Shown: positions 1-38,040 of the stretch, piece after piece
How positions within the stretch are numbered: the stretch's first letter is position 1
How the letters are laid out: each line of letters opens with the position of its first letter
NCBI GenBank assembly: GCA_008636045.1
Contig: SNRW01000010.1
Coordinates: forward strand, 1-48,301
Origin: Streblomastix strix
Lineage: Eukaryota
Direction: 5' to 3'
DNA length: 48,301 nucleotides
Made by a program: the position numbers and the translations under genes
The notes under the pieces: generated by a model
What the model was told of the DNA's origin: nothing
Databases searched by the model: none
What the model saw: the letters and a program-made list of their open reading frames with translations, nothing else

Positions 1-3000
1 CAATATATTGACTTTTCTATTTTCATATTTAAATATAGAATTTTTGATCTTTTGTTTATACTTTCTCGAGATGGAATATGGAACATTATTTAATTTAATA
101 TATAATAGCAATAATTTAATACTATATTGAGTGGAGATATTTCATAAGCATTCTTCGTAAGTAATAATAGAAGTAAAATAGATAATAGTATAGATCTAGA
201 TAATATATAATAGTATGTTTCAGTTAGATTATAATCTCACATTTAGAATAGAAGAATAATTGAATCAATTCATACTTAAAGAGAAAAAGAAAATGAAGTT
301 GAAATAATTTCTGGTATTATTTGTGCAACTGATGAATGTTGTCTGGTTGGAATATTGCTTTCTATTTCTATATCAAATTCTTTATAACCAACAAACATTC
401 ATTGCAGAACAGTTAAATAGATGTTATTACATTATTGTGATGATCAAGGTTTGAATCCTTCTTCTTCTGTTTATACTCCATTATCAACAATGAAAATAAT
501 TGGAGATAATAAAATTAATGCTGATGTAAGAATTAAAACATCATAAATGCGATAATAATAATACCAATAATAAATTTAATCAATATTTGATTAAACATAT
601 ACAACTGATGAATAGCTTTCTTTATTTCATTCTCATTCCCTTCGTGGTATTAAGGAAATAAGATATATATGTCCAATTAATTTATACAATATTAGTTATT
701 AATTATCATCTCATAATTAGTAGACAGATAAATTCAATATAAATTCTGAAGTATTTATTCTATATCAATCAATACATTCATTCATTCTTTGCTCTTAAAT
801 TAATATTAATTGGAAAAATGGACTTATTAATAATGGTACTATTTAGGTATATTAATATAATATATATGAGAAATTATTAATAAATATATTATCAATATAT
901 AATTATATTCAATCTTATATATAAATATTATATTATATTCTATATTCATAATAGTTAGGTCCTCTTGATCCAACAACAACTTTGATTATAAATGTTAGGG
1001 AAGCTATTCAATAATAACTTTATTGGAATGAATATTATATTCATTAGTAATAATTATAATAGAATGAATAATAATAAGAATAAGAATGGAAATATGAATA
1101 AGAAGCTTTATTTACTCTTTTTCCTTCATTTCATGAATAATAAGGATCTTCTTCATTACAATTGTCTAATTAACTTCTATTCCCTTCATAAATAACTTCA
1201 TTGCATTAATTAACTTCCAATTCTTCATCTCAATAAGAACAACAAATATAATAATAATAATAATCAACTATTCTTCCACTTAATCCATACTCAGCAATTA
1301 ATAGTCTATCTTCGCCAATTACTAATAAACTTCTATTAGATTATTAATAAAGAGGTATTACATATGATTATATTATAATGGTTTTACAAATTAATTATTT
1401 ATTCTCTCATTTATTATAATAAGGTCATTTCCCTCCACTTATATTCATATCATCATCTGGTCTTATACTTCTTTCTTCTTATTCTTCTTCTTCTTCTTCT
1501 TCATTCTAAATCTAATCTCATTTCACTCCATATCCATCTGTACTTCATCATCCTCCTACAAGTGCTGTTATTGTTATGAATGAATGAATGGAGGAATAAT
1601 CAATGGGAATTAATGAGAATAATAATATGAAGGATATAGAAAATGAAAAAGAAAAGAAAAATGATAAAGAAATAATCTAAAATTAATCTCATATACCTTC
1701 AACTATATTACATATTCCTTTCTCTTTATAGATATTCATTTCATCTGGACATTAACTTCTTTCTTTCTTTTCTTTTAATTAATCATCTATTTCGTTATTT
1801 CCAAATAAACATCTTGGGAAAATAATTGAAATATAACAGAATATTAAATAAATAGAATAAATGAACAAAGATAATAAGAATATTGAGATATTAAGATAAT
1901 AAGACGGAGAAAAAGAAATAATATAATAATTATATTCATAATAATAAGTGCATTATATATTTATTAGCACTATTCAAGGATCACCATTCCTATATTATAT
2001 ACCAAATATATATTAATAGAAGTAATAATAGATTAAATAAATATAATAAAAAAGAAATCGTAAACCTTATTCACTTCAGTTTCCAAATAAATAAAAAATC
2101 TCAAATCTTCTTCTTTAGAATATAATTAAACCTAAATGTTCAATTGGCATCATAATTCCATACTCTTGATCTTCTGATTAGTTTGATATGATACAACCTT
2201 CTATGTTTATATTAGGAAATGGAACATAGATGTGCGGATAAATACAAATATATTCAAATTAATTATAAATACAGAATGAAAATGAATAATTAATTCCATT
2301 ATTGATGGTAAAAGAATATGAATTGAAGGAGAAGAATGAAGAATAAGAAATAATTGTATCATAAGATATTGAGAATAATAAAGAATTAATAAGAGATGAT
2401 TAATAAGATTAAATTTAATTACAAACATCATACTAAAAATAACCAATTCAATTCACAAATACAATTATTGAGCCATATGATATGTTTTCTATTTAAATTG
2501 AAGGGAAAATAATAAAAAGAAAAGAGGAAGAAGATAATATTATTAGTAAGGATAATTAAGAAAATAATATTCAAGCATCAATTATTCTTTTTACTGGGTT
2601 TATTAATGAGTCAAATAATGAAAGCAATTATATTTAAAGAGAAGAAGAATAAATTGAATTTAATAAGATTAATGAATAATAAGAAAAAGAATTGATTTAT
2701 AATAAAATGGGTAACTTATTGTTTATACGAATGAATGAATAATAAAATAACAATAATTCAATTATGATTCCAATTCATCTTTATAAACTAGGTATTGCAT
2801 CTTATGGACAAACATAATAATTATCTTCTCTTCTTATTCCTCTTCTTCCTTCATAATATTCTTAATCTCAATAATAATCCATCTAATCAGTATAATAATA
2901 ATCTAAACCTTCTTTCTTCTCATTCTTATCATCTAAATAACCTCAGTAACCATAATACAGCCAATAAGAATAATAAATATAACAATAAATATAATAATTA

Positions 3001-6000
3001 TATGAGTAAGAACATTCATTTTTGATTATTCAAGTAACTAATAAAGAAATTAGATTATCTGTTCCATTATCATTTTGTTTTAATAATGAAAACAATAATG
3101 AAATTAAAAATATGAATAGAAATAAATACCATAATGCCATTCATTCAACACTTTAATATTCTTCTTTTTCTTCTATTGTACATCCACATCCATTTATATT
3201 CAATGTTTCATCTCTTAATAATAATAATAAGATTTAATAATAAATATCATCAACATCTTCATTTTAATCTTTATCAACATAGTAACCTAAATATATTCAT
3301 ATTTCATCATCATCTATAACTTCAAATATAATATATATTGTTGTAGATTAAATAGAATTACACATATTTGTTGTAGTAGAAGGAAAATTTGTTAAGTTAT
3401 AAGTAGAAAATGAAAAAGAAAAAGAATAATCAAAAGAAAAGAAAAAATAAATAACTGAAAAGAATGAAATATTTTATCCGTTTCGTCTTTTACATATTTA
3501 TCCTCCAAATGCAACATCACAAACTTTTATTTAAACTTTTGATCAATATTCTGCTATTCATATTCTTCATTCATTCATTATTGGCTAGATTCCATTTATA
3601 GTTTTATCTGCTTCACAATATAATAATAAATAATATTAATAATTATTATAATTATATAGAATAGATAATGTAGAATAGTACATTGGAATTAATGAAAAAG
3701 ATGATGATGAGGTTAATTAAACAAATAAAGAAAAGGAAAAACAGAAGAAATAATAATAAACAAAATAATAACAATAAAATATCATAAACAATATAAACAA
3801 TATTGTAACATTTACATTACTCTATTAAACTACATTATAAACATCTTATTATTCATCTTAATCATTTATTACATCTGCATCATCAATACGAATTGATATT
3901 GAAAAAGAAGTAAGAATAAGCAAATTTAAATAAGATGAGACAATTGTATCCAATTAAGTAAAGTCAGATATCAATGATAAAAGCGAAAAGAAAAAGAAAG
4001 AAGAAAAGACGAATATTTCATATTAATTAAATAATGATAAAATAAATAACGATTAATAACTAATGGATATAACATTAATTGTAATTGGTACATCAGATGG
4101 TTAAATGTATAATTATGCCTTTGAATCAGAATAATTGATCAACAATAATAATTCATAATAACCATAATTACAGTAAAAGTAATAAAACATTTAATAATCT
4201 TCTTAATAATATTAAATCCAAATTACCCCACTTAATCTTAATTATATTCCAAAATCATTTCATCCATGTAATCAACCAATTAAATTCTGTCCAATATTAA
4301 GTAATGAAAGCGAATCTAGAATTAATAAATAAATTAATTAGAAAATAACAAAATAATATACATTTCCTCTTCTTATTTCATATGGAAGCATTTCATCTTC
4401 TTCATAAACATCTACTTAATATAATAATTATAATTCAGTACTACTCTATAATACAATAATTAAATAAGCATATTGGAGATGTATTAATAATGGAGTAAAT
4501 GAAGGAAAAGCCATAATGATGATGTCTAATATAAATATGAATAATAAATATAGTGATATAAATGATAACATAAATATATAGAAGGATATTATTACTAAGA
4601 AGATGAAAATGAGAAGAAATAAATAAACATTCAGAGAAATAATAAATGAATTTGAAGAAAGAGAATATATTGAATAAATATATGAATAATAAAGAAAGAA
4701 TAATGATTCAATTACAAACATTTAATAATCATCATCATCTTCTTCTTCTTCTTCTTCTTCTTCATTATCCTTAATTTCTTAATCTCTCTCTTAAATTATT
4801 CATAATCAGTAATAAAGATATAAATTAGCATATTTAACATATCATTCAATACAATAATTAATTAATAATTAATAAACAGTTCCTTTTACAATCCCATTAA
4901 ACATTGGATAATTAAATATATAATAGAAACAAACATCATCAGTATCACAAACATAATTGTATAATAATATGAATAACATTAACACTTACAATAATATTAA
5001 TATTAATATTAATAATACATATTCCCCAATATAATAATTGTCACTTCCTTGTTCTCCATGTTCTATATCATTCTCATATTAATTGAATATTATAATTATA
5101 GCCATTAATTCATATTAATATATTGATTATAAATGTGAATGTTTGGATGATAATGAAGAAGAAGAATATGAATATAATGAATTTAAAGATAATAAGATCA
5201 ATATAAATAAATAAAATATATTTGATTGGGGATCTGATTATAATCCTGCAGAACCTGGTTTGAATTATATTCGTTAATTAATATATAATAATATTTAATT
5301 TTATTATATTCATAATTTTATTCTAATTCAGGAGCGTCCAATTATCCAACTTTATTAATATATTCTCTTAATGATATGAATCAAATACAACAAATAATCC
5401 ATCTTCCTGCAAATATGAAGATCAGAGATATGAAATTGATTGATGATTAAGAAATGGAAGAATATAATAATTATGATTAAGAAAGAAGAAGAGGAAGATT
5501 TATTAATAATTTGAATGAAAATAAGAATAATAAATAATCTTGTTTTGTTGCTATTTCACTTCATGATGATATTCCTGGTAATTATAAAAATATTTTATAT
5601 TTATTTATTTTATCAATTTTTATCTTTTTCATTTTTCATATATAACAGGAATAGCATTTCATGAATTAGATACAAAATCAGAATTAATTACAAATGCCTC
5701 TTAATCATTACCTTCTTCATCTTCTTCATTAATATTTCAATAATAATAGATTAATAGTAATAGTATATTTCAACCTGTGATATAATAATAATCTATATAA
5801 TAATAATAATAATTAACTAGTTAATAATAAGATATTCCTTAACCATTGAACTAATAAACATAAAATTAATAAACATAAAATAGAACTCAAGAATAAGAAT
5901 AGGAAATATAAAGATTAGCTACAAATTATAGTGGACAGGTATTTACTAATATAGTCAATATTTTATTTATTCTATATATTTATTATTTTCTAAATTACTT

Positions 6001-7738
6001 ATTTATTCAGTCATCATAATCATTTGAATCGCCAAGTATTAATGGAATGATTTTAATTTTATAAATTGAAAAAAAGTTGAAAAAGAAAAATAAATAAATA
6101 AAATAAAAAACAGTAATTAATGAGTAAATTACTTAAAAGGATATTAGATAATAATATTAAACAATAAAAGAATATGATCAAAATCCATCTAGTTAATCTA
6201 TACGTTAATAATATACTCCATCGTTTATATCTGCGCATACATTATGCATCACTTCAGTATAAAGGATAATAACAAAAGGAATTCCATCTCATATATAATA
6301 AATTAATAACAGAATATTCTCAGTTGTTGTTCATTGTTCATTGATGATATTTGGTATTACTGAGATTGAGAAGGAGAAAGACTATGAAAATGAAGACAAT
6401 TAGTTAGATTTAAAAGATAAGAGAAATAATGGATAAATAGATGAATAATATAATGAATATGCAGATGATTTTAGTGAAGGTAAAGATGGATAAGCAAATA
6501 AATAAGAAATAAACAAGAATAAAAAGTATAAAAATGAAGAGAAATAAAATGTTCTCTCACATCCTCTACTTACTTTCCTTCCAAAATTAAATAAAAATAA
6601 ATAATCACATAATAATACATTCAATTATTACAAAGAAAGTAAGAATGAAGTCAAGTTAGTATGTTTTGAATCTTTTCAGACTGTCATATTATAACTATGC
6701 GCATAAACTCCAAGATGTGCATTTAATATAAATAATGATAATGATGACACTCTAATTGCAGCCACTTCACTTCCAACTGTAATAACTGTTCTTCGCTTTG
6801 GTATTTCTGAACAATAGATAAAAGAGAATGAAATTAAAAGAATAGGAAATATTGAAGAATAAGAAAGTGGAGGAATAAATAAAAAATCAGTAGTTTAAAA
6901 ATATTCATAACTTATAGATAGTAATAAATTCATTTCACTTAATCAACAGTTTTATCACAGTAATAATTATTAATTAAATAATTATTAGCATCATTAAAGA
7001 GAGAAAGAGTTTTAGATTAAATTGCCTATTCATAAAAGACTCGATTAATTCACACTATAAATTCAAGCTTCTTCTTCTTTGTTTTAATTACCACTTGCAG
7101 TCTCATTTCTACCTCGTATTTCATATTAGTCTTCAACATATAATATTATGTTTTAAAAGAATAATAAACCCAATCATTAATCCTTATTAGTTGTTTCAAC
7201 TCCAGATTTTTATGTCACATTAGGTCTCTAATTAAAAAAGAAGATTATTTAATAATCATAATCTGACCCATTCCAAATTCATTCAACAAATTAAAATAAT
7301 GATTCGACATTTCTTCAACATCCCCTTTAATAATAATAAATTTAATAACCCCAACAAATACCAGAGCATGGTCCATGGTGGGATCCAAGTTCAACATGGC
7401 TAAGAAAGATTTCTATTGCACAATATGAACTCCATTGTATGTCAGCTACTCCTTATTCTGCTGTAAAAACAAAGATTAATGAATAAGGTGTATAATAAGA
7501 CATAACTACTTCTTCTGCATCTTCTCCTATTACTTCATTTACAATTATTTCCTCTCCAAAAATATATGATTCAATGAACAACTCAAACTCAAAACTTTAA
7601 ATACATGAATATTCGGTAATTGGACTCGCATAAAGTGGGGAAATAAAAAGGATTTTTTAATCATCCAATTCAATAGAAAGTTAAAATGATCAATCACAGA
7701 ACGATGTTAAATTTGGTTTAAATACATAACTACATTGA
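1..7738 (+). CDS. Highly expanded DDB1-family (DDB1/SF3B3/CPSF1-type) beta-propeller protein, 5'-truncated by the window edge, >2,400 codons
   Basis: Continuous frame with TAA/TAG=Gln. GT-AG introns at 847-954, 1355-1423, 5258-5331, 5578-5648 and 5939-6010. Motifs are collinear with DDB1: YIFISTIQGSPFLY (~VFVGSRLGDSQL), LIIQVTNKEIRL (~LIQITSASVRL), LIVIGTSDGQMYNY (~LLCALGDGALFYF), ITKGIPSHIQQINNRI (~EVKGAVYSMVEFNGKL), VIGLAQSGEI (~VLFGTVNGMI). Q/N/E/S-rich inserts separate the motifs. In-frame TGA at 1585 and 2167; terminal TGA at 7736-7738. Confidence 0.7.
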
Positions 7739-7828
7739 ACATTTTTTATTATAACTTTATTGACGTGAATGAATTATAAGAGGTATAGAAACGCAGATGG
7801 ATTAAAATATATCAATGCACGAATGTAA

Positions 7829-8366
7829 TCAGTAGATAACTTTAACAACATTTGGTCCCTTAGATGTAATAGCTGGATAATCACTCAGACAGAACAGATC
7901 GAGTAAATCTTTGTCTCCCAATTTCAGAGTCTGAATATCAGTTTATAATAAGTTTTATATTCATATATAAAGTAATTAATAACACACTATTTTTTGGTAA
8001 TCAACGTTAAATCTCTTCTCGATGGCTGTCTTCACATATTCAACTGTCTGCCCCATTGGAACCTGAACAAAGAATGAAAGAAATAATGAAAGAGAATAGA
8101 TAAAAAAAGCAGACTGTGAGTTTGTGCGACTTTCCATCTGGGAACTGCAGAGTAAGTGGTGCAGCAGCTCCACGAGCATTGTCTTCCTGTAATGCTTTGC
8201 TTTTATTACGGTCTCCCTTTTCAAGGTCTGCGATTGTAAGCTTATTTTTCACTTTTTTCTCGCCCGAGCTTTTGCCAATTCGATCAGCTCCATCTTATAA
8301 TTCATCATCCGAAACTTCTACCTCTTCTTAAACATATTCGTACTCTTCCTCGCCTTTCTTTGCCAT
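7829..8366 (-). CDS. Small protein with an acidic N-terminus and a C-terminal ubiquitin-like (beta-grasp) domain, ~142 aa
   Basis: ATG at 8366, introns 8063-8114 and 7931-7987, TGA at 7829. Spliced product: MAKKGEEEYEYV...LTLQFPDGKSHKLTVPMGQTVEYVKTAIEKRFNVDYQKITLKLGDKDLLDLFCLSDYP...VVKVIY. This has the UBL pattern but no C-terminal GG. Confidence 0.75.
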
Positions 8367-9261
8367 TTTCACAACTAAGGGTGTAAAAAAATTGTAGTAA
8401 ACAAGAAAATAAAAAAATGCTCAAATTTATCAAAATTTGTCAGTATAAAATAAATATTATATGTTATATTAAATTACTTAATAGACATGAAGAGTAAATA
8501 AATTAGTTTCACTTTGAAATTAATCGGATACATTTAGAAAACGGAGATAAAATAACTTCATTCAATTTCGCTTAACAGTTTGTACGTTGGTGGTTCGAAG
8601 AATATGAAAATTAAAATAGTTATATTAATGTGCAATGAATGTAAAAAATAGTAAATATATATTATTTGTTGCTCTTAAGCGCGTAGAAATCCAAATTAAT
8701 TTCGCCAGCAGTTTGCAACAAATACAGCTAGAAAGTATTTGCTACCTTAATAGCAAATTGAGTATGACAACTGCCATGAATAAATATGGGTTATAACATC
8801 ATAATGCAAGTTCCAACGCCAGAAAATCTTGAAACAAAAAATTGTGTACGTGCGTATGGAGGCCAAAAAACCGACAATATCCGGTGAGCTTTTTAGTTTG
8901 AAAATTGAGCTTGGCTGAATTATTTGTAATATATTAAAATGCATTTTACACATTGTAAACCAAAATGAATTTTATATTGCTTTAAAAAATAAAACTATTT
9001 TTTCTACACAAATACGCACTTTTACTTCCTTTTATACTATAATATTTCATTTATTCTAGGTTATTTATCACTTTATAACTCTATTAATAACTTTATTATT
9101 CATCTTAATCACCGAAAATCATTTTTATATCCATTTAAATTAAAGTTACATATTTTTGAATTAAAATTTGATTTTTTAACTAATTATCATTATTATTATC
9201 ACTTCTTACAATATTAATTTAATTTTGTAAATATAAATAATATAAATTAAAAGGAAATATA

Positions 9262-10681
9262 ATGGGTTTTTTTTCTGTGACAAATTTATACTCGTTAGCG
9301 ATTATTATAACTTTGATAATTAATCGATATAATCCTTCACTTGAATCAAGTTTCAACTCAGATAAGCTGTGGAATAGAAAATTTCAAATTTCACAGCTTT
9401 TTCTCCCATTTACATCATTACCAATAAATAACATCTTTTGGATAATAAATCTTTGGATAATGTATGCAATATTAGATTTATTATGTAAATTTCTATTTAT
9501 TTACTATTTATTTCTACTTAATTTATATTTATACACTAAATTTATTATAATAAAATATCAGATATTCATCATTCAATGAATTAGAACATGAAATATTTAA
9601 TAATAACTCCAAATAATTCTTTGCATTAATAATAGTAATTTGGGCAGAAATTATTGTATGTTAATTAATTATATCCTATTATTTTTTATATTAATTCTTT
9701 CATATTTTCTAATAGGTTATTGTTTCATTATTATGGAATGTTTTACCAATTGAATAGCTCTTCTTTATGTTCGTCAATTCAGTTTATCGATTTTAATCCT
9801 GGATAATGAGTTATTAGAGAGGATTGCCTCATGGAAGGCAGAATTGATCTATTAAACTTACTTCTGTTCTTTCTCTTCTTCTTTCTCCTCTTATGAATAT
9901 AGTATTCAGTCTTTTCTTTGTAAGTACAGCTGGTTGGACAATTGTATTAATTGTGTTTATATAACAACTCATCTGTATGTTTGCTGATTTCACATCTTTA
10001 CTATTATTCAAATCAAAAATAAGAGCTGTTTCAAATGAAGTTAATTAAGTATAATTACATGAATAATTAAATGAATTAACTCAACAATTAGGAACATTAA
10101 TATAGTTAGGTTAAATCTTTCGAAATTAATCACCAGCCATAAATGGAGTATTAGAAATTGCAAGAGGAGTATCACCTGTAATTGTTCAATTAGTTTAAAA
10201 TAGAAGCAACTCTCCTGCAATTGAGTAGAATGAGTAAGATAATAATCTTGATGTTTAATCGCCTGTAATGAATCCAAGGAGGAGTGTTAGTGCACTACCA
10301 TAAATACTGGATAGAATCGCTAGAAGCACCAGCAGATAATCATAAATTATTGAAGATGTTTAGATGTAACACAATAGCCGTTCACATGCAATGAATTTAA
10401 ATATTACTCGAAATAGGAGTACTTCATAAGTTGTTGAAAATATACAGAATTAAGAAATTAATCATATTTAAGATGAATAGAATGATTTGCAGATAGAATA
10501 AAGGTAAGATATGATTACTGAATCATAGATTAATTCTATTGCTTTGATTTTAATACTAATAGCTATAGGAGGCTTTGTTATTTTGATATTTCTAGTTTGC
10601 CTCTTATTTCTGTCGTTTTATCAAGAAGTTGAATTAATTGCTAATTCTATTATCATAAAAAATATTAAAAATACATTCTGA
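9262..10681 (+). CDS. Derlin-like (rhomboid pseudoprotease) membrane protein with a long C-terminal extension
   Basis: Introns 9462-9561 and 9656-9715. Spliced FQISQLFLPF...NLWIIYSSFNELEHEIFNNNSKQFFALIIVIW parallels Derlin FQIWRPITATF...NLYFLYQYSTRLETGAFDGRPADYLFMLLFNW. An in-frame TGA at 9845 precedes two further hydrophobic helices. The true end is uncertain (TGA at 10679 or 10895). Confidence 0.6.
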
Positions 10682-11138
10682 AAGGTTATCATGTCACGAT
10701 TTCATTCTTCAATCATCGTTATTAATAAATTGTTACTTCAATTATCGAGCTAAGTAGTTAATATTGTGTTTATATTAATTAAAAATAATATTTCTTGTAA
10801 TAATGTTTAACTTTATTTTATAGAATTTAAATATTAAAACTTCCAATTTGATTAGAATTTAATTTTTTAAATTCAAATGCAGCTTAATCACTATTGAAGA
10901 TTGCATAATACGCTGATATTATATTTTTTTAATAATATAATATTTTTGTGTTCATTTTTTAAACGACTATTATAAATATATCATATTTTAATTTGATTTT
11001 TTTTTTAATTTTGCTTTTTAAAACTCTTCATTTTTGTAGTACCAAACAATGCTTATTAGTATTTCTATTAATTTAATTCATATTATCATAATTAATTTGA
11101 TATTAATTTTATACATTTCATATATTTTAATAACAGAA

Positions 11139-14100
11139 ATGGCGTGCTCTTGCCTTGGACCTTCAAGTAGCAAAGGATAATTTAAAGCCATTGCCAAAAA
11201 CTTCCATTTGCCAGATGGAAATGAAGAGCAGTAGAAAATAAGTTATGGAAAACAAGAAAATGACTGTGAAACATTAGAAGTGATCTTCAAGGATAAGAAA
11301 GATGATAATGGTCGTAAAAGAGCTATTGAAGAAGGAGTTGCAGATGGATATTTGCAAATATTTGAGAGCAGAGAGCTAGAATAAATTACATGACCATTTT
11401 CGTAAGCATTCCTAGTACTTACTGAACCAGCTAGTACAGATGTAGTCCTTTTACTCTTCAATAGAAAACCCTTCCCAGGATTAATTCGTCTTCTTCAACA
11501 TTCAGACATTGGAATTGTTAGTGATTCAATGAGATCAATTGTGAATATCCTTTCATCTGGATCAGAATCAACACAAATGTCAGAAACACATCCACATTTA
11601 AGTGCAATGAAGGAATGCAATGGAATTGAGGAGTTATATTCAGTTTATGAGAATAATGGAGACTAAACATGCCAAAATCTTGCATCAATATGTATTGGAC
11701 ATCTTTTCAGAGGTTAAGAAATTGAAAATAAGAAATAAAATATAATTGATAATCTGAAATAACTTCTTATTGATTCTGATGTTTGGATTCGAGAAGCATC
11801 ATAAAGATCTCTTAAAGATTTAGCTCAGAATTTAGAGAATCGTAATGAAATAATGACTGGAGATTTCATGAAGAATATGGCAAGAGATCTTCAATGTAAA
11901 ATCAGTGGTAATGATGAATAAAAGAATGAAACAATGTTATAATAAGAGAAATATTGTAAGATTCTTCATATTTCATTATAAGGAAGAGAAGATGATGATT
12001 TGAGGAAGAAAGCATTGAATTGTGGAGTAATAGAATCTATTCTTCATATTCTTGAATAACGAGATCTAAGTTAGATCACACATCCATATATATTGGTATT
12101 CTATTCTATATTAACTCCATCTAATGAATCAATCAAATAACTGATACTTAGTAAGAAGCCATATAATGGACTTACTCGTATACTATTCCATTCTGATAAT
12201 AATATATGTTTAGATTCAATTAAATCAATTGATATATTACTTTCTTATAAAACAGATTCATCATCATATTGTGATTCTAATCCATAATTTAATGTAATGT
12301 AAGAATGCAGTGGATTAGAAAAGATCTTATCTATATTCTAGAGAAGTAATGTGAAATAGATTAAAGATATTTCATCATTCTGTATTGGAAGATTGTTTGA
12401 AGGAAGATAAATAGATAATGTTATAATAAAGAAAGAAATATTATTTCATCTTAAAAGACTTATTATTGATTCTGAACTACAAACAAATATAACATCAAAA
12501 TCTATTCTTATGGGACTTGTTAAGAATGAAGGTAATTATTTGTTATATTAATTATTCATTATTTGATTTAATTATTAATTAATAAATTAATCATAATATT
12601 TACAACCTTATTATTTAATCAGTGAATCGCTCTGAAATCTTGAAATCTGATCTGATTAAGAATATTGTTGAAGATCTGAAGCAACCACCAAAAGGAGATG
12701 CAATAAAGAAATAAGAAATGAGTTGTGAATTGATATTAAGATTATTTAAAGATAAAGAAGATGAATAAGGAAGATTAATTGTTATTGATGGAAAGATTAT
12801 AGATACATTCATAAACATCTTTGAGAAGAGAGAACTTATATTAATAAGTCGCCCATATTGTGAAGCTTTTAATTGTTTATTAGCACCAGCGAATGATGCT
12901 GTAAAACTGAAGATATTTGGAAAGAAACCTTATTCTGGACTTCTTCGTATTCTTGATCATGAAGATATCAACATCTTAGAAGATATATTATATTCAATAT
13001 TCATTCTGTTATCATCTGGATTGAATACGGTTCAACATTCATAAGTCCATCCTCATTATAAAGTGATATAATAATATGGAGGGACTGAAAAGATTATTTA
13101 ATTATTTAAGAATAATAAGAATAAAAGAACAAAAGATTTTAGTTCTATTTGTTTCTCCTTCCTTTACAAAGCTCGTGAAATAACAGATTCTTTTCAGAAG
13201 AACGAAATAATTCCTCATCTGAAGACTCTTATTTATGATCAAGATGTTCAGATTAAGAAGAATGCAAGAATTGGACTTACACTTCTAGCTGAAAACAAAT
13301 GTATGAATAAATATTTGAATAATACATTAAGTTTATAAATATAACATTAACATTTTATTATTATTCACATCTTTAATAATATTCAGTGAATTGTGAAGAG
13401 ATTCTGAAAGGAAATTTCCTCAATGATATTGTTCATGGATTGAGAAATGAATATGGAGAAGGAAAATAAACATTAGAATAAGAGAAACTTTCAGGTTAAT
13501 GTGAATTTCTTACAGATCTTATTGTAGTATGTAAGAATGATGATGTAAGAAAGATTTGTATATAAGCAGGAATTGGAGATGCATTATTCCGATTCATTGA
13601 GAGTCAAGATCTAAATTCAATATTACAATCACAATTATACACAAATACATTATTTACTCTATTAAATGGTGGATCTGATATACGATAGTAATTATTTGAC
13701 ATAAAACCATATCCTTCACTTCTTCATCTTCTATAACATCCTAATTCTGAAGTAATATTCTAATCTATTTGTTAGATCCTAAAATTCTTAATTAGTGGAT
13801 CAATTGGAGTTCAATATTAATCTTTACATCCTCATATACCAATTATGCAAGATAATAATGGAATTGAAAAGATATTTGATCTTTTTAAGAGAAATTTGGA
13901 CAAAGAAACAAAAGATTATTCATCCATCTGCATTGGGTACCTTTTCAAAGGATAATAAATTATTGATATTGAAATGAAATAAGTTCTTCTGCATCTCATT
14001 AGAATAATTTATGATAATAATGAATATATCAAAGCAAACTCCAAATAAGGACTTAAATTTCTTGCAGAAAACCCAGGTAATGTTTATTTATATAAATTGA

Positions 14101-17100
14101 ATCATTTAAATAACCATATTATCATTTAATATTTATTATATATTATTATATTATTTTATGTTTTGTATTGAACAGATAATTGTGAATAAATTTTGAAAAG
14201 TGATTTCCTGAAGAATATATCTGAATATCTTAGATAACCTATTGAAGGAAATGATTAATAGAAAAAAGGGATATTGAATAAATAATAAACAGGATGTGAG
14301 ATTATTTATGCGATATTTAATGGAAGAGAAGATTCTTAAGGAAGATAAAACACGATTGATATTGGAATTGTAGATTAACTGATTAGAATCTTAAATAATT
14401 ACAAAATGAATATAATCTCAGAAGCATATGTAAATGCATTATTATCAATATCAGGACCAGCAAGTGATTAAATTAAAGAATAGATCGTTGCTAAGAAAGC
14501 TTATCAATCATTGATTCGAATATTTGATCATAATAAAATTGAAGTAATAAATTCTTCAATTTAAATAATTGATAATCTGTTATCTGTTTATGAGAATAAA
14601 GAACTTGATTTATCAACACATCCACACTTTGATTAGATGCAATAATATAATGGAATTGATAAGATCTACTAATTATTCAAAAAGAATATGAATAAAGATA
14701 TTAGAAATCGATCAGCATTATGTATTGGAAGATTGTACTGTGCATAATCAATTAATAATTAAATTATGAAAGTCGAAGTTATTACACATTTGAAAAAGCT
14801 CACTGAAGATCCAATATTACAAGATTCTGCTTATAAAAGACTATTAGAACTTGCTTAGAATGATGGTATATTATTTTTTACATAATCTATTCATTTGTTT
14901 ACATTATTCATTATTTAATATATTTAATTATCATTATTTATCTATTTATGCAATTTATAGGCAATCGTATTGAAATAATGAATTCTACAATGTTGAAGGG
15001 CATTGCTTTAGATCTTCAAAAAGAAATTATTGGAAGTGAAGATAATATTAATGAGATTAAAGAAAGATAATTCAAACTATGCAATTTTCTAATCTCATTA
15101 ATGAAAAGATTAGAAGATTAAGAAATAATGAAACTTGTAATTAGCAGTGGAATATCTCAATCTCTTACAATTATGTTTTAGAAAAGAGATTTAGAATCGA
15201 TCACTCGAATATTCTCTTAAACATTTTATAATATAACAGCTGCTTCAAAAGTTGATGCTCGAGTGATGATTTTTGAGAAATAACCATTTCCAGGATTAAT
15301 TCGATTACTGAATCATTCGAATATTGATATTGTTTCAGATTCATTAAATTCAATTATGAATATTGTTTTAGCTGGAACTGAAACAACTATTGAAACAAAT
15401 GTTCATCCTTATTTCAATGAAGTTAATGGATGTAATGGAATAGAAGCGATATACTCTATTTTCTAATAGAACATAAACAATGATTTGAAAAATACATCAG
15501 CAATTCTTTTTGGACATTTGTATAGATCAAGAGAAATTAAAGATATTAATCAAAGAATTGAAATTATTTCACATTTGAAGACACTTCTTAACAATTCAAA
15601 CATTGAAATAAAGAAGAATGGAAAGAATGCGATTGTTGATCTTGGATAGAATGAAAGTATTTTATTTATTAATAAACTATTATATTTTAATTAATTCAAT
15701 TTATCATATCTATTATTTTTTTTTATTTATTTTTTGTTCCTCAGTTAATCGAGCTGATATCTTGTCTATTGAATTCCTGAAAAGCATTTCCGATGATTTA
15801 TAAATTCGTGTAGAAGGAAGTAATGAATAAATATTAGAGATTAATTGTAAATAATAATTTTAATGTGAATTACTAACATAAATTTTAAAAGGAAAAAAAG
15901 ATGCTGAAATTCGAAAGAATTGTATTGAAACTAAAATAGTCAAATCTCTCATTAATATTTATTAAGAAAGAAAAATTAATTAAATAACACCTTCATTTTC
16001 AGAACTGTTTTTAGTAATCAGTTAATGTTCAAATGATATTGTGAATTTACTATTTGATGAGAAACCATTTGAAGGATTAATTCGCTTATTTGAGAATCCA
16101 AATAAATTAGTAGTGAGTCATTCAATTAATTCTTTATTCAACATTGTTTGTGCAGGTGCATCAACATAATCAACAAGAAAACCCAATCCTCATTTGGAAT
16201 TAATTGAATAATATGAAGGTATCAATTAACTATTTACGTTATTTCTCAAAAATTCTAGCAAAGATATAAGTGATAAATCAGCATTAATAATTGGTATTCT
16301 CTTCAGATAAAGGCTGATTGAAAATTCAATTATACGATCGCATATAATTTTACATTTACAATAACTTACTAATGATTCAAACTAATAAACAAGATATTTA
16401 GCTTAATCAACATTTGATGGACTAATGAATGTATTTGGTATGAAAAATAATTGATATCAGAATATGAAATAGTTTTTGAATTAATCAATAAATTAAGATT
16501 TCATTTTTAATTATTTTTATTTTTCTTCTTCTAATATTTTTTCAAATAGAAAATAGATCAGCTCTTTCTGACAATGATTAGATTGCATTAGTTGTGAGAG
16601 ATTTAATGATCCCTTTATAAGGTGCTACTGCTGAATAAAAATAAGATATTCTTATAATACAAGATTATGGTTTTAAATATCTTTTCTCATTAATAGAAGA
16701 CTAAGATAAAATGGGTAGATTATTAATTGATTAAGGAGTTATTGATACAATTATCTATATTCTAGAAACACGTGATCTTCCAGATATTAATAGAAAACTT
16801 CTAAGTATTATCGGATATATATGTTTAAGCAGTGACGATGACTCTATGTATATTGTATAAAGAAAGAATCCATTCCCTGGTCTTATCAGGCTATTTAATC
16901 ATGCAGAGGAAAAGACTATTAATACATCAATTGAAATTATATTTTACATTTTGTTAGCCGCCCACCGCAAAACTGAAGCCAAAAGTCTTCATCCATATTT
17001 TGATAATGTTGCATCTGTTGGAATTGAGAAGATTTTGGAACTTTTTAGACGAACTACTGACAAAGAAACAAGAGATTATTCAGCAGGAAGCTTAGGGATT

Positions 17101-18176
17101 GTTTTCAGAGCTCGTGCAATCAATGATCCGACAATGAGACATGAAATAATTTAGTATTGCAGAGCTCTTCTATATGATCCAGAAAAGAAATTGTCATCCA
17201 TGGGATTATGTGCACTCAATTGTATGGCAGAAAATAAAGGTATTCAATATAAATGAAAATATATTAATTATGTTTTAAATTTTTTAGAAAATATCTTAAA
17301 TCTAATAAATTTTCACAATAAATCTTTATTTTCCAGTTAATCGATCAGATTTCTTATATGGAATTTCATTGTAAGACATGGCAAATGATTTTGGAAGACC
17401 GCTCTATGGAAATGAAGAAGAGAGAAATAATATTATAAGAATGTAAGAGTGTCATTGCACATTGATTTTTTCTATGTTCGCAGGTATTGAAGATGACTAA
17501 TTACGATAATTTGTTCTAAATTCATACTTCCCAGATTCACTTCTCCGAATGTTTGAATAAAGAGACTTAAACACCATAAAAGAAATTCATATTGAAGCAT
17601 TCTTCTAACTAACCTTGATAAAGAAAGATGAAGCTCGTGCACAAATCTCGTGGAAAAGGCCATTTCCAGGATTATTGAGGCTTCTTAATCACTCAGAAAT
17701 TATTATTGTTGAGAAATCTTTATTTAGTTTATACAATATCATAAAAAGTGGGATGGTATTATCAAAACGAACGGAGGAAACTCATCCACATTTCCAAGCA
17801 ATGTAAGAATGTTAAGGGATTGAAAAGATATATGCACTTTTCCAAAGGAATTTGAAGAAAGATATTAAAGATACATCAGCTGAATGCATTGGGTATTTAC
17901 ATAAAAACAGATAGATATAAAATAAATATATGCAAAGGGATGTAATAATGCATTTGATTCGATTAATTAGAGATTCTGATCAGACAGATAGAGGAATTGC
18001 ATAAACTGCTTTAATATATCTTGCTCTCAATAATAGTTTGCACATATTTAAATAATTGTTATAAAATTTCAATTGTTTTTTATTAAAAATTAATTTATAT
18101 TGTATTTGATTATATTGTTTCAGATAATCAATAATTTATGATTAGTATTGGTTTTGATCCAATGACTTTACTGTGA
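11139..18176 (+). CDS. ARM/HEAT-like alpha-solenoid protein built from nine ~230-aa tandem modules (~2,090 aa)
   Basis: ATG at 11139 (MACSCLG). Recurrent motifs KPFPGLIRLL.H, HPHF..M..C.GIEKI, SICIG.LF and LA.N..NR.EI. Eight phase-1 introns: 12532-12622, 13301-13386, 14077-14175, 14866-14960, 15657-15744, 16438-16549, 17240-17336, 18036-18123. One in-frame TGA at 11391. Ends TGA TGA. Confidence 0.85.
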
Positions 18177-29276: not shown

Positions 29277-32200
29277 ATGAAGATTATTATTGTATTGATT
29301 GTTGCATCATCATTTTGCTTTACCATAGAATCATCTCCTACAAATATTACTATTTCTTGGTTAAATAGAGATTCTCAATCGCCTACTGGACCAACTACAA
29401 GTCCAATTCAAAACTTTGATTGCATTCGGAAATTTGCAAGCATTGTAGAGAAGTCAACTTCTTCCTCATTAATTTCAGATCAAGAATCATTTTCAATTGA
29501 ATCTTGCTCATTTAGTGATGATTACAGTGCGATTACAATAAATGAAAATACAAATATCCTATCACTGATTGAAATTTCTGGTGGAGAGCTTTCACTAACA
29601 AACTGCCAATTTAAGAACATCTATATCGCTTGCAACTCGTTGATTCATTTCGCATCTACATCAACTGGACTCACTATGAATAATTGCATATTCAGGAGTA
29701 TTACTATATGGACCCTTTAAGAGATATCAAGTTCAACAATAATACCATGTGCAGTTATTTATATACAAATACCTAAAATTACATCAACAGCTTCAGTTGG
29801 ACCATAGATAAGCATTCTTGAGTCGTAGTTTGAATAAATCAATCTGGGTTACACTGAAGGTACTTCATCTGACAATCTTTAAGTTGGATTAGATACTATC
29901 TCAGACTTTGCTCCAATAATAATTGAAATATATCCAAATTCATCAGAAACAGAAAACTATGGTACAAGTACTTGTGAATTAAAAAGGTGTCAATTCCAAG
30001 TTACATAAGGAAGTCATTCTGGAGCAATAACAATTCATGGCAACATTGGCACTATCAGAATGTCACAATCGCACTTCATAAGAACAGTAGCTGAATTTGG
30101 TACATAGTATATAGATGCAGTCTATGCATAAGTGCTCTATATGGATACAGTCGATATGGTACCTTCCCTTATTCAAGCTAACTTCATACAGTGCTATGCA
30201 GATACGACCTCACCATAGGTAGCTATAGATGGTGGCAGTGATGACATATCAGGAGCATTTGAAGATAGATTGAAAGTGTACAATCTTGATATTAATGTCG
30301 ATCTTACAGGAAGAGATTAGGATAGTGTTGGTACAACTGATAATCCATTCCGTACACTGAGTGGAGCTGTTTGGGCTTCGAATATGAAGTAATCTCGCTT
30401 CTTGGAAGGTAATGTAGACAATGGGAGGAGCCCTGTTACAATCAAGGTTAATGAAGGATTCTATGAGGAAGAAAGAATAAAAATATATACAGAGACTGCT
30501 CAAATATCTGGAAAAGTTGATGCTAGTAATGATTGGAAGACTAATATATCAAATATAAAAGTCAATACTGGAGTTTCTGATGCTTGTTTGATAACTATTC
30601 CTGTAGATAATGAAAAATGCCTACTATCAATCATGAGTATATCATTCCATCAAATAGTATAATTTGCAACTAATCCACAACCAACTGTAAATTAATATGG
30701 ATTTCTTGAAATAGGATAAGGAATAGTGAGTATTATTAATTGCAGATTCTAATAAGAGAATGTTGGAACTCCAAGCATGTGCCCCATGATTCATATTCTC
30801 TGTCCAGGTGTAATAATGGAGAAATGCTTGTTCTAAAATGCAGCATTTAAATAGGATGCATCTGCTGATATAAGTTCTGAAGCAGTGCTTATTGATAAAT
30901 TAGGAGGTGTATAATTATTAGATTGTTCATTTACTTCCATAACTGGGATGACACTTCGTGCTAAAGAGAGATAATATAAAGATGATCTAATATTTTCTTC
31001 CTGTTCTTTCACATCATGTACAACTGATAGTAACTCTCCAATTGTAATCGAATCAGTATTTGAAAGATCAACTGATGCAATATATATTCATTATGCTGCC
31101 ATTTGCACTACAGTTACATTTACCAAATGTCAGTTCACTAATTGTATTGGAGATAAATCTGGAGCTGTTGAATTACTTGGCACGCTGATTATTTTCTCTT
31201 TTACGGGATGCTAATTCAATAGTAACTCAGGAAACACTGCAAGAAATGTATATATTAATCTTGAAGATGCAACATCATCAACAAATATTTATGGATCTTA
31301 AATGATTCCTTATTCATTTGGTGGTTGTACTGATACAGTCAAATCGGGATCATCCACTTATGGAATATATAGCTCTGATTAATCAGCATTGGATTTCGCT
31401 TCAGTAATCTCAGCTGATAAAAATAAGCATAAAGAATCATATGTCAGAACTTCTGGAAGTGATGCAAATGAAGGTACTTCAGAAAGGCCTTATGCAACTA
31501 TAGCAAAAGCTCTTCTTGATTCCAATGCAGGCCCAGATCAGATTATTCAAGTTACAATTGGAAGAGGAGTATATGATGATGATTTCTCTTAGATTGGAGC
31601 AAGAGGTGTTCTTCTGATTGGTAATGGAACTAATTCAACTGTTCTTTAGAATTAGATAGCATTATAAAAATAGCTTGCATGTATTGTAGGTGGATCTCTA
31701 GAACTACAATCTCTGTCAGTTAATCATTCATCAATTAACAAAGCATATGGGGGTCTTATCATTATGCGAGGTGCTGGATAACTCATAATGAAGAATCTGA
31801 TCATATAACAGAATGATGCTGAACAAGAGCAGATAACAAGTATAATATATGCTACTGCAGGAGATATATATCTTGAGAATGTCTCTGTCACATATGTTAA
31901 ATTCAGTAACTCAGTGTAGCAAACTTCTGAGAATAAATCAATGTATGCTGCAGCTATATATTGCACAGACTTTGTTGGTAATGTTGTACTCAATGGATCT
32001 TCCTTCTCACAGATGATAACATATGACAAACAATCCCCATTGAAGAATGTGGTGGACTATGAAGGTGGAGCAATAGTTATAGAAAGCGCACATTCATTCT
32101 CAGCTAATAGTTGTCGATTCTCTCAGATTGATGGATGGAGAGTAGGTGCAATAATAATTAGAAAACTGACTGTGCCAAATATAACGATAAGTAACTGTGT

Positions 32201-33931
32201 GTTTGATCACAACCGTGCACGAATGAATGATTATATCACAGACCTTATGAATAAAATATACGTAGGAAGTGATTTGGTCCTTGATCATGAATTCATCAGG
32301 AGTAACATTGATGGTAAAATAACTAATAGTTCTTCTACATCGACTTTCCCACTAATTGGATCCATCCATGACCAATTCTGTTATGGTGTGTTTGATTATA
32401 TGCTCCGCTCTCTTAATACAGACAGCCTCTATGTGAGTAATAATGGAAGCAACGAACAAGGAACAGGAGAATAGACATCACCATTCAAGACAATTGAATA
32501 CGCAATTTCTGTTGCATCGTCATCTGCAGATCGATAAGCGGTAATTATGCTTGAAGAAGGAGTTTTTTCAGAGCGTCTTATAATGATAGGAGGCAGATTA
32601 TTAGGATTCTAAGGGGTTTCATAAAGGGATGATGGTTCTACTACAAATTCATCTACAGATTAACCTGGGTTAACATAATTGTCAAGTAATTAAGATACTG
32701 GTTAAGATTTTTTCACTGTCTATAATGGAAGTCTTTCTCTTACCATGCTTGTTCTGACAGCTGATAATTCTGATTCAATGAGCAATAAGAGGTTTTACTT
32801 CATACATTTGTATGGGCAGGAAAGTAGATTCACTTCTGAATCGTGCATATTCTTAGTCTCTGATCCGAAAGTTTGTAAATAAATATATATTTTTAATTAT
32901 AATATTTTTTATCGATTTTTATATTTCATAATATTATATTATATTAATAATCGTTTATCATTATAAATACTTTCAGACTCACATTCTTTGTCAGTATATC
33001 ATGGCAGACAATGGAGCCAACATCTCAATGAAAGAAACAACCTTCCAGAAGATCATAACTATGGACATATCAGTTATGCGTGTTTCAGTGTACAGCAATC
33101 CACTCTCATTAACAAATGTAACTTTCTCAAACAATTAAGTGCAGAAAGTGACAGCTGGATCACTTAAGATAGAGTAATTTGATACCGGCACAGTCTTGCT
33201 TGAAGGATGCAACTTCTAATTCTGCGTTTCACTAACTGATGATTTCTGGGGGACTTAGATTTTTGGAGCAGGGATCACTTTGATTTTCAATTCACAAGCA
33301 TAATCAGGATAAGTTACTTTTCGAGAATGCAGATTTGATACATGTGTTGGAGACTGTTGTGGAGCTTTGACTGTATAAGGGCCTTAATCCTGTCTGAATT
33401 CTGGTGGATTGGTTTTTTAGTAGTGTCTGTTCATATCAAACATCGCCTGTAGTAGTCGAAGATTCCCTGATGCTGTCAGAGCAAATGATATCTATTTTGA
33501 TATTCCTGGATTTTTGGATTTCATATAATCACAAACTGATGAAAGCGCAATGTTCAGTGGCTGCACATCATTATCTAACGCTCCACAAATTAATATTAAA
33601 TCGAATGAAGATAAAATTAATTTGGATAGATATCTTGTCACAGCTGGGAGTAATTCATCTTAATTAATACACCCAAAAGATGTTATTGTATCTGGTTCAA
33701 AAGGAAGTGATTCAAATACTGGAGGAGCTGGTGATCCAATCAAAACAATATAATATGGATATTCGTTTGTGAGCAAAGGAGTTAATACATTAAGTACAGT
33801 AACTGTTGAACTTGGTATATATCATGAATCTCTTATATAGACTAGTGACTGTCATTTAGTGATTAAAGGAAGAGGATATCATAATACAATAGGTATTCAT
33901 TAATAATAATTATTATATTATATATTTATTC

Positions 33932-33998
<67 letters not shown>

Positions 33999-36900
33999 TT
34001 ATTTATTTTCTTATAATATCAATCATTCAAGTTATTAATGATCTAATGCCAGATTTCTCATTCATCTGGAGCGAGAGTGGGACAGACTTAACTTTCTCAG
34101 ATATGAAAGTTATTTAATGCCCCACCGACAACACAGGATCTCCAACATTTGATGTATCACCAGGAGCATATCTGATGATCAAACGTTGTGTTCTGACTCA
34201 CGATCAAGAAATTGAAAATATGGATGAAGCAACAAGACCCAAATATAAATCTCCTTTCTTCCGTATGCGCAGAGCGAGTGGAGGTCTTTTCAGTGTTATT
34301 TTGCATAGTGCTACTTTTGATGATACATATGCTATTCATATTGATGCTGAAGAAGATGATTTTGATTGGGACGATTTTAGAAGTGATCTTCTTCCATTTA
34401 CCTCTCAAGACTAATGCAATAGTTGCTTTTAATATAGTACATCATCTATTACTTGCACAACTGCAAATACTGATATTTAAAATAATAACAATAATGAATA
34501 ATATGATATAGACACTTAAGAATCATCTTATAATAAAAATATAATTGAAAATAGAATGAGTAATAATTTGAGAAAAAGGAAAAATTCAAGAAACGATGAT
34601 GGAACATTAATGGATCCGCTTTAAATGGATCTATTTAATTTAACTGTAATGAATGTATATCCATCTAATCTAACAAGGCCAATAATCAAGTTTGGTGTAA
34701 CTCCTCGTACTAATATACTAGTTTGATATATTTATCGAATATAAATTATTGTTATCTGATTCGATTAATCAAATTATATTTATTTTTTAATATATTTTTT
34801 CTATATTATTTTATAATATTATTTATTATTAAAAGGTAAATAACAGTTTATTCTATCACCATAACTATATTGAGATAGCTTTAGGACCATCTGTAACTGA
34901 AGGCTTTTCAACGATTGGAGCTGTTAGATTCACAAGATGCAGATTTATTAAGATGGGGGAACCTCCAGAAAATAGAGCGTATTTTTATACTAATTATTAT
35001 AATTCATTTACGTAATTATAATTATAATTATAATTATAATATACATATATGTCATATTTATCAATTCATTTATCTTTTAATAATTCTTATCATTATCTTA
35101 ATTCTAATCAGATGCACAAAAGTTTCACCTCAAACATGTGAACGTCCAGCTGTAGGTGCAATTCTTGTATATGAGGCTTAATATGGTGATGACAGAAGTT
35201 TATATGCAACTAAGCAGCCTTGGAGGAAAAATTGCCAGGCTAGGCTAGGATAAGCACTATTTCAGTGTGTATATAATTGTTAGTTTGAATTGATCTGGAA
35301 TAAAAATTAAATATTAGCTTTAATAGAAATAAATTAATATTAAATTATTAACAATTTTTATTGATAATTTTAATATTTATTTTAATATTTTATTAGTTTA
35401 TGCTTCTTTTCTGAATGTGTTGGAGAAATGGTTGATGGAATAGCAGTAGAAAAAGAATATTTAAAAGTGATTCCCTGGATTATCGGAGACAATACCACAA
35501 TCAGCAATTCAAATTTCCTGGAGTCACATTTCATTAGATCTCATTATTGGACAGGATCAAATTCTTCATAAACTATACGTAGTGGATTATCTATAGCATC
35601 TGTTATATTAGAAGCTCGTTCAGATGAAGTAGCTATTGATAAATCACAAAATTATGAACTTCTTCTTACTTCAGGAAATGATAATTTCTTTATTAACGTT
35701 AATACTGAAGAATAATCATAAACACTAAGCCAAATTTCTCCAACAGATGTTTCAATTGAATAAATATTTGGAGGTGATTTGCTCTCATAGCGTGTGTACG
35801 AAATGAGTTTGACTGATTAATCTAAATTTGATATAACACTGAATAAAGGAATATACGAAGAGTTATGCATTGTCGGATATTGTATGAATAATATATATTT
35901 GTTTTTTATATATTTTTATTTAAGTAGTATAAATATACAATTTTTTTATTATTCATTTTTATTATATCAATTTTTTAGTTGGAGAATTTAATGTAAAATC
36001 ATCGGATGGACTTTCTTAGACAGATGTTATAATAAGAGGAAAAAATTCAACATCTGAATTTGTTTAATAATTATTTTAATAAAAATTAATGATAAATTAT
36101 ATAATATTTAGTTATTTGTTTTAAATCTTAAATTATAATTTCAATATATTATTTATTTATTATTTATTATTTATTTATTATTTATTTATTTATTATAATT
36201 ATAGGTATTAACAGATGATGGATATTTCGTAGATCCATACTTTTACTCCCTCATATCGCTTGAAATTGACATGAATATGACATTAATAAAACTAACGCTT
36301 GAACACTTCAATCTTCCAACGGAACAGCCCATTGTTCAGATTCGTGATAGAAGTGAAATTCACACAGATTATGTTCTGGTAAGACCAAGTACCAAATCTG
36401 ATGGAGAAGTTGTATAAAGAGCTCCAACTTTTTGCGCATTTTCTGGTTTAGTTGAATTGAAACATACAATTATTGAAATAATTCATTTGGAAGCTGTTGC
36501 AATATTTAAGACGATGCATGAAGATGGAATGGATGTATTTCCATATGATAGAACTGAAGCAATTTTAACAAACTCAGGAATCATTAATGTTGTAAGAAAT
36601 GTTGGGATAGGAACTGCAGGCAATTCTATTGGGTTTAATCTTACTTTTATTGATTGTGATCTTACTCATCCAGATAATTCTAAATCAGGAAGAAATAGTT
36701 ATCTAAACAGCAACAACTAATCAACCTCTCATACCAATTCCAATTCGTCCTCTCATACTCATACTCATAATCACAAATATTCAAGAAAAGATTCAAAGCT
36801 TCAATAAACTAAATTCCTGAATGAAGGAGAAGAAGGAGAAGTACCAGAACCTCCTCTTGTTCCCAGCTGTGGATGGGAGTCTGGATATATTCGTATGCAA

Positions 36901-38040
36901 GGAGGAAATTTAAGAATTGAAGGAAAAACTGATATCGCTTATCTTCGAAAAGGCGGTTTATCACTCTTCAATACAACTGTTTTCCTTGGTCCAGATGTCA
37001 GGTTCCACCTGAACAAAGAAAACGTCAATATTCCTGAAAATTAAACCTTTGACGCATTATCACGTAAGAATATAGCATGTGGTTGGGGAGCATCAATTGA
37101 AGCATCATTTGAGACGTTTAATGAAGAAGGACTTGAGAGTGATGCATTATGGATACATCGTACTAATGAAGGTGAAGGATTATTTCCTGCTTAATGTGAG
37201 TTAAAAGGTGAAATTGCTGGTGTTACTGCAACGCTTTTTAAACCCACATTATCAAACGTTGTAGGAGATTTGAGCAAAGATAAGCAAGGCTCAGATATTA
37301 CATTCATTGGACACAATCTCATTAAATGTGAAATGATTAAGTATCAGATATGTGAAAAACCAGGAAAGGATGGAATAATAGATGAAACACACTGTATGAA
37401 GGGGATACTTGAGGCTGGAGCTTTGAAATGGGACAATGAAGTCGAAGCGACAGTTCAGACAAGGTTCAAGGTTGTCCGTAAGTGGAAAACTATGAGAGTG
37501 AAACTGATGTATGCAAATGTTGGTGAAACTGAAAGCTTTGATGTCAGTATTGAGAAGATGACTACTGGTATTATTATTATATGAATAAATGGAATAATAT
37601 TTGAAAAATTTTATAAATATGATATTAACCATATATTATTATTATATATATTTTTATTCACTATTTACTTATCATATTTTTTCCCTAATTATTCATATAT
37701 TAATTAGGAATGATTGCTCTAATGGTGATTCTTACTGTGATTATTCTTGCTGTTTCTATTGGAGGACTCATAACCGTATATCTCTATTATAGATATAGAC
37801 AGCATAAAATAGAAGATGCCAGGAAAAAAGAATTGCAGGTATTTATTATTAATATCATATATTATAAATATCTATTATATGATTAATTAAATAAATATCT
37901 TTAAAATTATTATTTTATTTACAATTTTTAAGGAAATGGGACTGGATCGACAATCGTATCCAGATCAAATGAATAATATGAACGTATCCAATGAATATGG
38001 TATAAGTTTAATGCAACCTATGAATTCTGATTATAATTGA
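29277..38040 (+). CDS. Large type I membrane surface protein with parallel beta-helix (pectin-lyase/Pmp-like) repeats
   Basis: Signal peptide MKIIIVLIVASSFCF; many C.F..C and (G)GAI repeats; four G.D...G....PF.TI..A motifs (~30310, 31450, 32440, 33700). About nine introns (e.g. 32871-32976, 33893-34031). TM helix MIALMVILTVIILAVSIGGLITVYLYY followed by RYRQHK and a short tail. TGA at 38038-38040. Confidence 0.85.
33932..33994. repeat. (TTA)n microsatellite inside an intron
   Basis: About 20 uninterrupted TTA units within intron 33893-34031. Confidence 0.9.

Follow-up and report, generated by a model that had tools for sequence, protein, structure and literature searches.

We analysed a window of 48,301 nucleotides from Streblomastix strix, a termite-gut protist belonging to the oxymonads (NCBI GenBank assembly GCA_008636045.1, contig SNRW01000010.1, positions 1 to 48,301 of the forward strand), in which three host genes that otherwise look intact carry four in-frame TGA codons. 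These four TGAs are real DNA codons in S. strix genes. The explanation that we place first, with a probability of roughly 45%, is that they are recent nonsense mutations in an organism whose code is plain TAR=Gln (TAA and TAG as Gln) with UGA as stop. Internal decoding of UGA of any kind, all variants taken together, is almost as probable and ranks second, and an artefact, RNA editing or an intron are jointly improbable; these odds are a matter of judgement and no posterior was computed.

The genes concerned are predictions, assembled from frame switches and GT-AG sites with predicted gene ends and translated under NCBI table 6; the donor of the first intron of gene A is ambiguous, and position 836 was used. 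Gene D served as the control.

Gene A, 1..7738, + strand: 2447+ codons, 5' end beyond the window, 5 predicted introns, terminal TGA at 7736.
Gene B, 9262..10681, + strand: 419-codon predicted membrane protein, 2 predicted introns, terminal TGA at 10679.
Gene C, 11139..18176, + strand: 2093 codons, tandem ARM/HEAT-like modules of ~222 aa, 8 predicted introns.
Gene D (control), 29277..38040, + strand: 2560 codons, 9 predicted introns, DUF1565 match, terminal TGA at 38038.

Under table 6 the spliced models contain two internal stops in gene A, one each in genes B and C and none in gene D, with no frameshift in any of them, and all 24 modelled introns are of GT-AG type, 59-143 nt long and 5-14% in guanine-cytosine (GC) content. 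An earlier note on this DNA, made from the letters alone, had reported in-frame TGAs at 1585, 2167, 9845 and 11391; all four were read there with the flanks it quoted, and its description of the genes as intact agrees with the absence of frameshifts and with the GT-AG introns in every model that has an internal TGA.

Internal TGA, 1585..1587, + strand: gene A codon 465, 5949 nt before the terminal stop.
Internal TGA, 2167..2169, + strand: gene A codon 659, 5367 nt before the terminal stop.
Internal TGA, 9845..9847, + strand: gene B codon 142, 834 nt before the terminal stop.
Internal TGA, 11391..11393, + strand: gene C codon 85, module column 75.

As nonsense mutations, these codons would have arisen by single-base changes (TAA, CGA, AGA, GGA, TGG and others are one step away from TGA) in redundant copies, whether members of an expanded family or one haplotype of a diverged pair. 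Release factor eRF1 would terminate at the premature TGAs, and the lesions would be too young for later frameshifts to have accumulated or for an older signal of purifying selection to have faded.

The host had been taken for one that reads TAA and TAG as Gln, which fits S. strix, whose published code is given as TAR=Gln only in the available text of PMC13002328, and in-frame TAR served as a criterion for picking S. strix expressed sequence tags (PMC1501061). Genes A-D contain 486 in-frame TAR among 7519 codons (417 TAA and 69 TAG), with TAA aligned to Gln in the paralog P0006. All five modelled host genes, A to E, terminate in TGA: the terminal TGAs named earlier are present at 7736, 18174 (as TGA TGA) and 38038 and, on the minus strand, at 7829, and one more, at 10679 in gene B, was absent from that list. 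The fifth gene is a neighbour of gene A.

Gene E, 7829..8366, - strand: small, two predicted introns, terminal TGA at 7829, 0 internal TGA.

The convergent stops of genes A (7736) and E (7829) leave a gap of 90 nt, and the 3' untranslated regions (UTRs) are therefore probably short, as judged from this one gap. Internal TGAs make up 4 of the 7519 codons of genes A-D (0.053%), and at 4/4 sites the true stop lies 834-6027 nt downstream, four sites being few for testing depletion near 3' ends. Gene D contains 16 TGG and no internal TGA in its 2560 codons, and the nonsense reading is favoured in part because this control gene is free of them.

The only site of the four that can be aligned is 11391, the other three being without homologs. 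The ARM label that gene C had received stands in a weakened form, on weak HEAT matches together with a large paralog family. Word-based homolog searches found a single paralog when gene C was the query and two known proteins when the family alignment was used; in a representative library, the first module of gene C matched 232 proteins at E <= 0.001, 150 of them listed. The module alignment comprises 252 modules, 195 of them with a residue at column 75, the site of TGA 11391, and family counts were taken from 153 proteins. At column 75 the 195 modules have Arg 42 times, Gln 23, Leu 20, Ile 15, Lys 15, Cys once and Trp never. The earlier statement that 11391 aligns with Arg, not Trp, is upheld by these counts; yet the closest paralog, P0006, has Gln at this position, one transition from TGA. 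Nonsense is favoured here because the sole alignable site falls in a variable column, with Trp in 0/195 modules and Gln in the closest paralog.

Candidate stops in other family members were taken from protein ends alone, which may be natural termini, for example at a helix border. Of the 153 proteins, 30 end abruptly before column 212; 26 of these are of known status, and 6 are complete models. An end directly before column 181, where Arg is found in 116 of 207 modules, is shared by three complete paralog models, no two of them nearest relatives, and by one partial model, and the other complete abrupt ends lie before column 171 (Arg plurality), column 130 (Ala/Gly/Ser) and column 200 (two-residue tail). 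The four models that share the end at column 180, before the conserved Arg, are P0039, P0057, P0112 and P0127, unrelated members of the ARM family; Arg read-through, a mutational hot spot or a favoured natural end could each be responsible. The nonsense reading is also favoured because many models in this family look broken, and the authors of Codetta describe how stops in pseudogenes mimic reassignments (PMC8629427, available text).

Residue models were compared at six positions, namely the window site and the five cleanest complete paralog ends, a set chosen post hoc that excluded 17 partial ends, 3 Logan-derived ends, 4 of unknown status (P0034, P0042, P0101 and P0133) and P0158 (complete, with a 2-residue tail). 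The log-likelihood (logL) was -22.5 for Arg, -25.2 for AT-biased nonsense, -34.3 for Gln and, for Trp, -47.5 as a pure model or -31.6 as a 70% mixture. When column 181 was counted once, the edge of Arg over nonsense was gone (-17.0 vs -17.7), and in the ten-position likelihood, for which P0034, P0042, P0101, P0133 and P0158 were restored, AT-biased nonsense reached -53.3, a 70% Arg mixture -53.6 and a Trp mixture -61.7. Nonsense is favoured because on ten positions it equals the 70% Arg mixture and beats Trp. Taken together, the aligned residues speak against Trp, which is disfavoured, and do not separate Arg from plain nonsense.

Trp had been put forward as the usual precedent, and a Parduczia/karyorelict code (NCBI table 27), with UAR=Gln and UGA as Trp internally and as a terminal stop, is an unlikely explanation and, among the two main decoding options, less likely than Arg. 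Trp recurs as a precedent in TAR=Gln lineages, the rate of 0.053% compares well with the 0.042-0.12% reported in the available text for such codes, the three non-alignable sites are open to it, and P0042, whose completeness is unknown, ends directly before the conserved Trp column 206. Precedent is outweighed, however, by the lack of any Trp in the 195 modules at column 75, by the worst logL among the residue models that have a precedent, and by column 206 itself, where 86 ordinary Trp stand against no more than one candidate stop (p 0.0007 if the window's TGA share of 10.5% is taken, 0.13 if a share of 4% is assumed). The window's TGA:TGG ratio of 4:34, set against the 72-86% of A-ending codons in synonymous pairs, was considered as a further argument against Trp and given little weight, as proven UGA=Trp ciliates are equally low in UGA in the data available for them.

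It is possible, and in our judgement doubtful, that S. strix reads all 64 codons as sense, with UAR as Gln and UGA as a rare, position-dependent Arg (or an Arg-rich mixture of near-cognate residues) that acts as a stop only near the poly(A) tail at the transcript end, gene predictors having hidden UGA by means of false introns and truncations. A weakened UGA-specific eRF1 would then lose to a cognate or near-cognate tRNA, tRNA-Arg being the most plausible, far from poly(A) and win near it, and CGA-to-TGA would parallel CAR-to-TAR, the first-position U being read as C by tRNA-Arg. The absence of frameshifts and the purifying selection seen downstream in gene A (below) are consistent with such decoding, as are the position of all four TGAs at least 834 nt from the stop, the short 3' UTRs implied by the 90-nt convergent gap, the first rank of Arg at column 75, the paralog ends just before Arg column 181 and the six-position logL. 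In yeast, UGA can be filled by Trp, Cys or Arg, with Arg a minor product (PMC4150775, available text), and a contig overlap ending at 11390, treated below, is a hint only. The Gln of the closest paralog counts against the Arg reading, as do the inferred and perhaps natural paralog ends in a set chosen post hoc, the loss of the edge once column 181 is counted once or the dropped ends are restored, and the fact that the literature holds UGA=Arg only as a putative organellar code, as far as the available text goes (PMC13672107).

A second line of evidence comes from DNA contigs of sequencing run X1. The comparison with the window was restricted to DNA contigs, and run X1 is possibly the window's own sample; the listed pieces from runs X2-X4 have small shares, none of them across the four TGA sites. 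X1 contigs differ from the window by 0-2.5% over 1-10168 and by 0 differences over 10247-18197. From the differences over 1-10168 we conclude that a second haplotype or copy probably exists for genes A and B, which counts in favour of the nonsense reading. The variable stretch 1-10168 beside the invariant 10247-18197 may itself reflect local heterozygosity or a duplicate that was collapsed.

The same contigs bear on an amplification or assembly error in the single-cell genome, which we consider quite unlikely. The assembly is described in the available text as a fragmentary single-cell one (PMC10703272), substitution errors would yield stops without frameshifts, and base-level X1 support extends to 11391 alone among the four sites, since the X1 contig over 9845 carries 7 differences that are unplaced. 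Set against this, TGA 11391 lies within an X1 contig of depth 30 with 0 differences over 11361-14530 (not independent if X1 is the window's own sample), an error rate of ~1% would be required, and the X1 differences are enriched in synonymous changes, like real polymorphism. At this site two X1 contigs join through an overlap of 30 bases that ends at 11390, one base before TGA 11391. The overlap is what a graph branch would produce if it lay at 11360 or at the first base of the TGA; it would arise in ~1% of cases by chance, and is to be taken as a hint only; the junction near 11391 suggests another sequence or allele branching there.

Several results weigh against recent nonsense mutations. 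Four TGA lesions without a single frameshift or splice lesion have p 0.0005-0.03 under assumed indel ratios, and p ~0.06 at the ~1:1 ratio counted by eye in a decayed element of the window that was used as control.

Decayed DUF5906/VapE-like (primase-helicase type) element, 40630..42520, + strand: ~2 frameshifts and 2 in-frame TGAs, by eye.

In gene A, 30 single-site differences lie 3' of the two TGAs, and 15 of them are synonymous vs 21-29% expected (p 0.0003-0.012; 40 of the 329 X1 difference rows were used), an excess whose p becomes 0.01-0.22 if one lineage has been neutral since the split. Relaxed dN/dS downstream of the TGAs had been named as a sign against decoding; in gene A, where this was checked, the differences point to purifying selection in place of relaxation, although that selection may be older than the lesions or concern the other copy. 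The coding indels among the X1 differences shown are net multiples of 3, gene C has no second haplotype in X1 (0 differences, 10247-18197), and under nonsense, three of the five host genes would be recent nulls, with two separate hits in one of them. Moreover, the UGA rate of 0.053% falls in the range of proven sense UGA (0.042-0.12%, available text). In favour of nonsense, ~180-220 substitutions across the four genes (0.8-1% neutral divergence) suffice for 4 TGAs.

It has also to be considered whether the TGAs lie inside unrecognised introns, an explanation to which we give only a remote chance. Frame-keeping GT-AG pairs with the usual ends do span all four sites, and the public gene model uses one of them; these candidates, however, have 24-37% GC vs 5-14% for the 24 modelled introns. 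Hidden introns are unlikely because the spanning candidates are so much richer in GC, and the micro-introns that the earlier note had named as a possible escape did not materialise, none of the four TGAs falling in an intron-like stretch. The public model concerned is the top match of the family search, P0007, which equals our gene C model from the first residue and is recorded as S. strix EZS28_000142; it is without residues 59-92 and so skips TGA 11391.

False intron implied by the public model, 11314..11415, + strand: 102 nt, 35% GC, removes 34 residues (59-92).

The deleted residues 59-92 are conserved in paralog P0006. In the public S. strix proteome, one false intron at the least, and perhaps many more, conceals a stop. 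Several paralog models have internal skips of a similar kind (P0017, P0032, P0078, P0100 and P0118 among them), and the paralog models together have 30 skips of at least 15 columns, many of them at true module borders. Stops or frameshifts concealed in this way may be widespread in the proteome.

Repair of the codon in the transcript is very improbable. Stop-repairing RNA editing occurs in plant organelles and fungi; here U-to-C editing would produce CGA, and A-to-I editing UGG, the former giving Arg, the commonest residue at column 75. The TAR codons, however, are retained in S. strix mRNA. Selenocysteine insertion at UGA is no more probable than hidden introns: the available supplement of PMC10703272 credits S. 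strix with SelB and selenophosphate synthetase, and lists SBP2 for M. exilis only. A selenocysteine insertion sequence (SECIS), which had been proposed as something to look for, was not found in the window at Rfam gathering scores, Cys occurs once in 195 modules at column 75, and the sites are not redox motifs. No tRNA genes were found in the window.

The identities proposed for genes A and B fared less well than the gene structures. Searches of Pfam and of PDB sequences, which covered unspliced exons only, gave no support for calling gene A DDB1-like or gene B Derlin-like. The predicted product of gene A is beta-strand-rich with Gln/Asn-rich inserts. For gene B, a word-based homolog search gave no match, and an atlas search with exon 1 gave hypothetical matches only, all sub-0.8. 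Single-sequence AlphaFold models were uninformative (predicted template modelling score, pTM, 0.47 with two long helices; predicted local distance difference test, pLDDT, 33, unusable, for gene A), and neither JGI metagenomes nor IMG/VR yielded a related locus. In the available part of a supplement, the model numbered directly before the ARM gene sits in a single-copy Preaxostyla orthogroup and may be gene B or E, which is a lead only; the numbering seems to carry over because the next number is a Tc3 transposase, as at window position 18879. Gene E looks ubiquitin-like by eye, and its exon 1 had no match in Pfam.

Elsewhere in the window, 18879-19877 holds part of a Tc3-type transposase (PF01498) and, beyond TGA 19569 but without a change of frame, part of a MULE-type element (PF10551, slightly below cut-off). 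Gene D is a predicted surface protein with a signal-like start, DUF1565/pectinesterase-like matches and a late membrane segment; its second intron has a long (TAT)n tract, and imperfect tandem repeats with a T-rich unit, seen by eye, lie downstream at 38280-38560. The stretch 38600-48301 appears to be element or endogenous-virus-like DNA, with a CpG ratio near 1.0 vs 0.34-0.47 in host genes. The CpG depletion of the host genes was not adopted as a sign of methylation, since codon use could explain it.

The anomaly is real and slightly likelier to be ordinary than new, and public data can decide, the accession of the 2026 Streblomastix single-cell transcriptomes being given in PMC13002328. Nonsense alleles would be unremarkable in a genome already known to use table 6. 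If UGA is decoded, the ambiguous stop/sense codes would extend to a further supergroup, and the residue would probably not be Trp; this would bear on the roles of eRF1 and poly(A) proximity in defining termination and on the reasons for which lineages with UAR=Gln give up the one dedicated stop left to them. If the Arg reading is true, UAA, UAG and UGA would all be first-position C-to-U versions of CAA, CAG and CGA, and the window would represent both an ambiguous nuclear code beyond alveolates and trypanosomatids and a nuclear UGA=Arg, neither of which was found in the literature searched.

Compared with known codes, the window shares with NCBI table 6, the table of S. strix, UAR=Gln, abundant in-frame TAR and UGA as terminator, and its four internal TGAs go beyond the described code. 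No report of internal UGA in oxymonads was found in the literature searched, outside which lie the S. strix genome paper and the 2003 code paper. With tables 27 (Parduczia/karyorelict, Amoebophrya) and 28 (Condylostoma) it has in common UAR=Gln, rare internal UGA far from the 3' end and probably short 3' UTRs; in those codes, however, UGA aligns to Trp, whereas the alignable site here does not, and the present case is known from DNA alone. Translation of internal UGA in C. magnum was demonstrated by mass spectrometry and ribosome profiling, and the rates of internal UGA are 0.042% in C. magnum, 0.059% in B. japonicum and 0.120% in Parduczia (PMC4967479, available text). A model of termination by proximity to poly(A) and poly(A)-binding protein (PABP) has been proposed for ciliates, according to the available sources. 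In Blastocrithidia (table 31) all three stops can likewise be sense, but there UAR=Glu, UGA=Trp and UAA is the terminator, in place of the UAR=Gln and terminal UGA found here (available text). The putative organellar UGA=Arg codes (Craticula vanensis mitogenome, Trentepohliales plastids, oikopleurid mitochondria) resemble the window in that Arg, if any residue, is also the best single match here; in the available text of PMC13672107 such UGA codons are abundant (119 in C. vanensis) and without protein confirmation, whereas here such a code would be nuclear, rare and of dual meaning. Finally, premature-stop pseudogenes or nulls in expanded protist families show the same single-step codons, variable residue and truncated paralog models, and the S. 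strix genes differ from them in having 0 frameshifts, intact splice sites and a retained signal of purifying selection.

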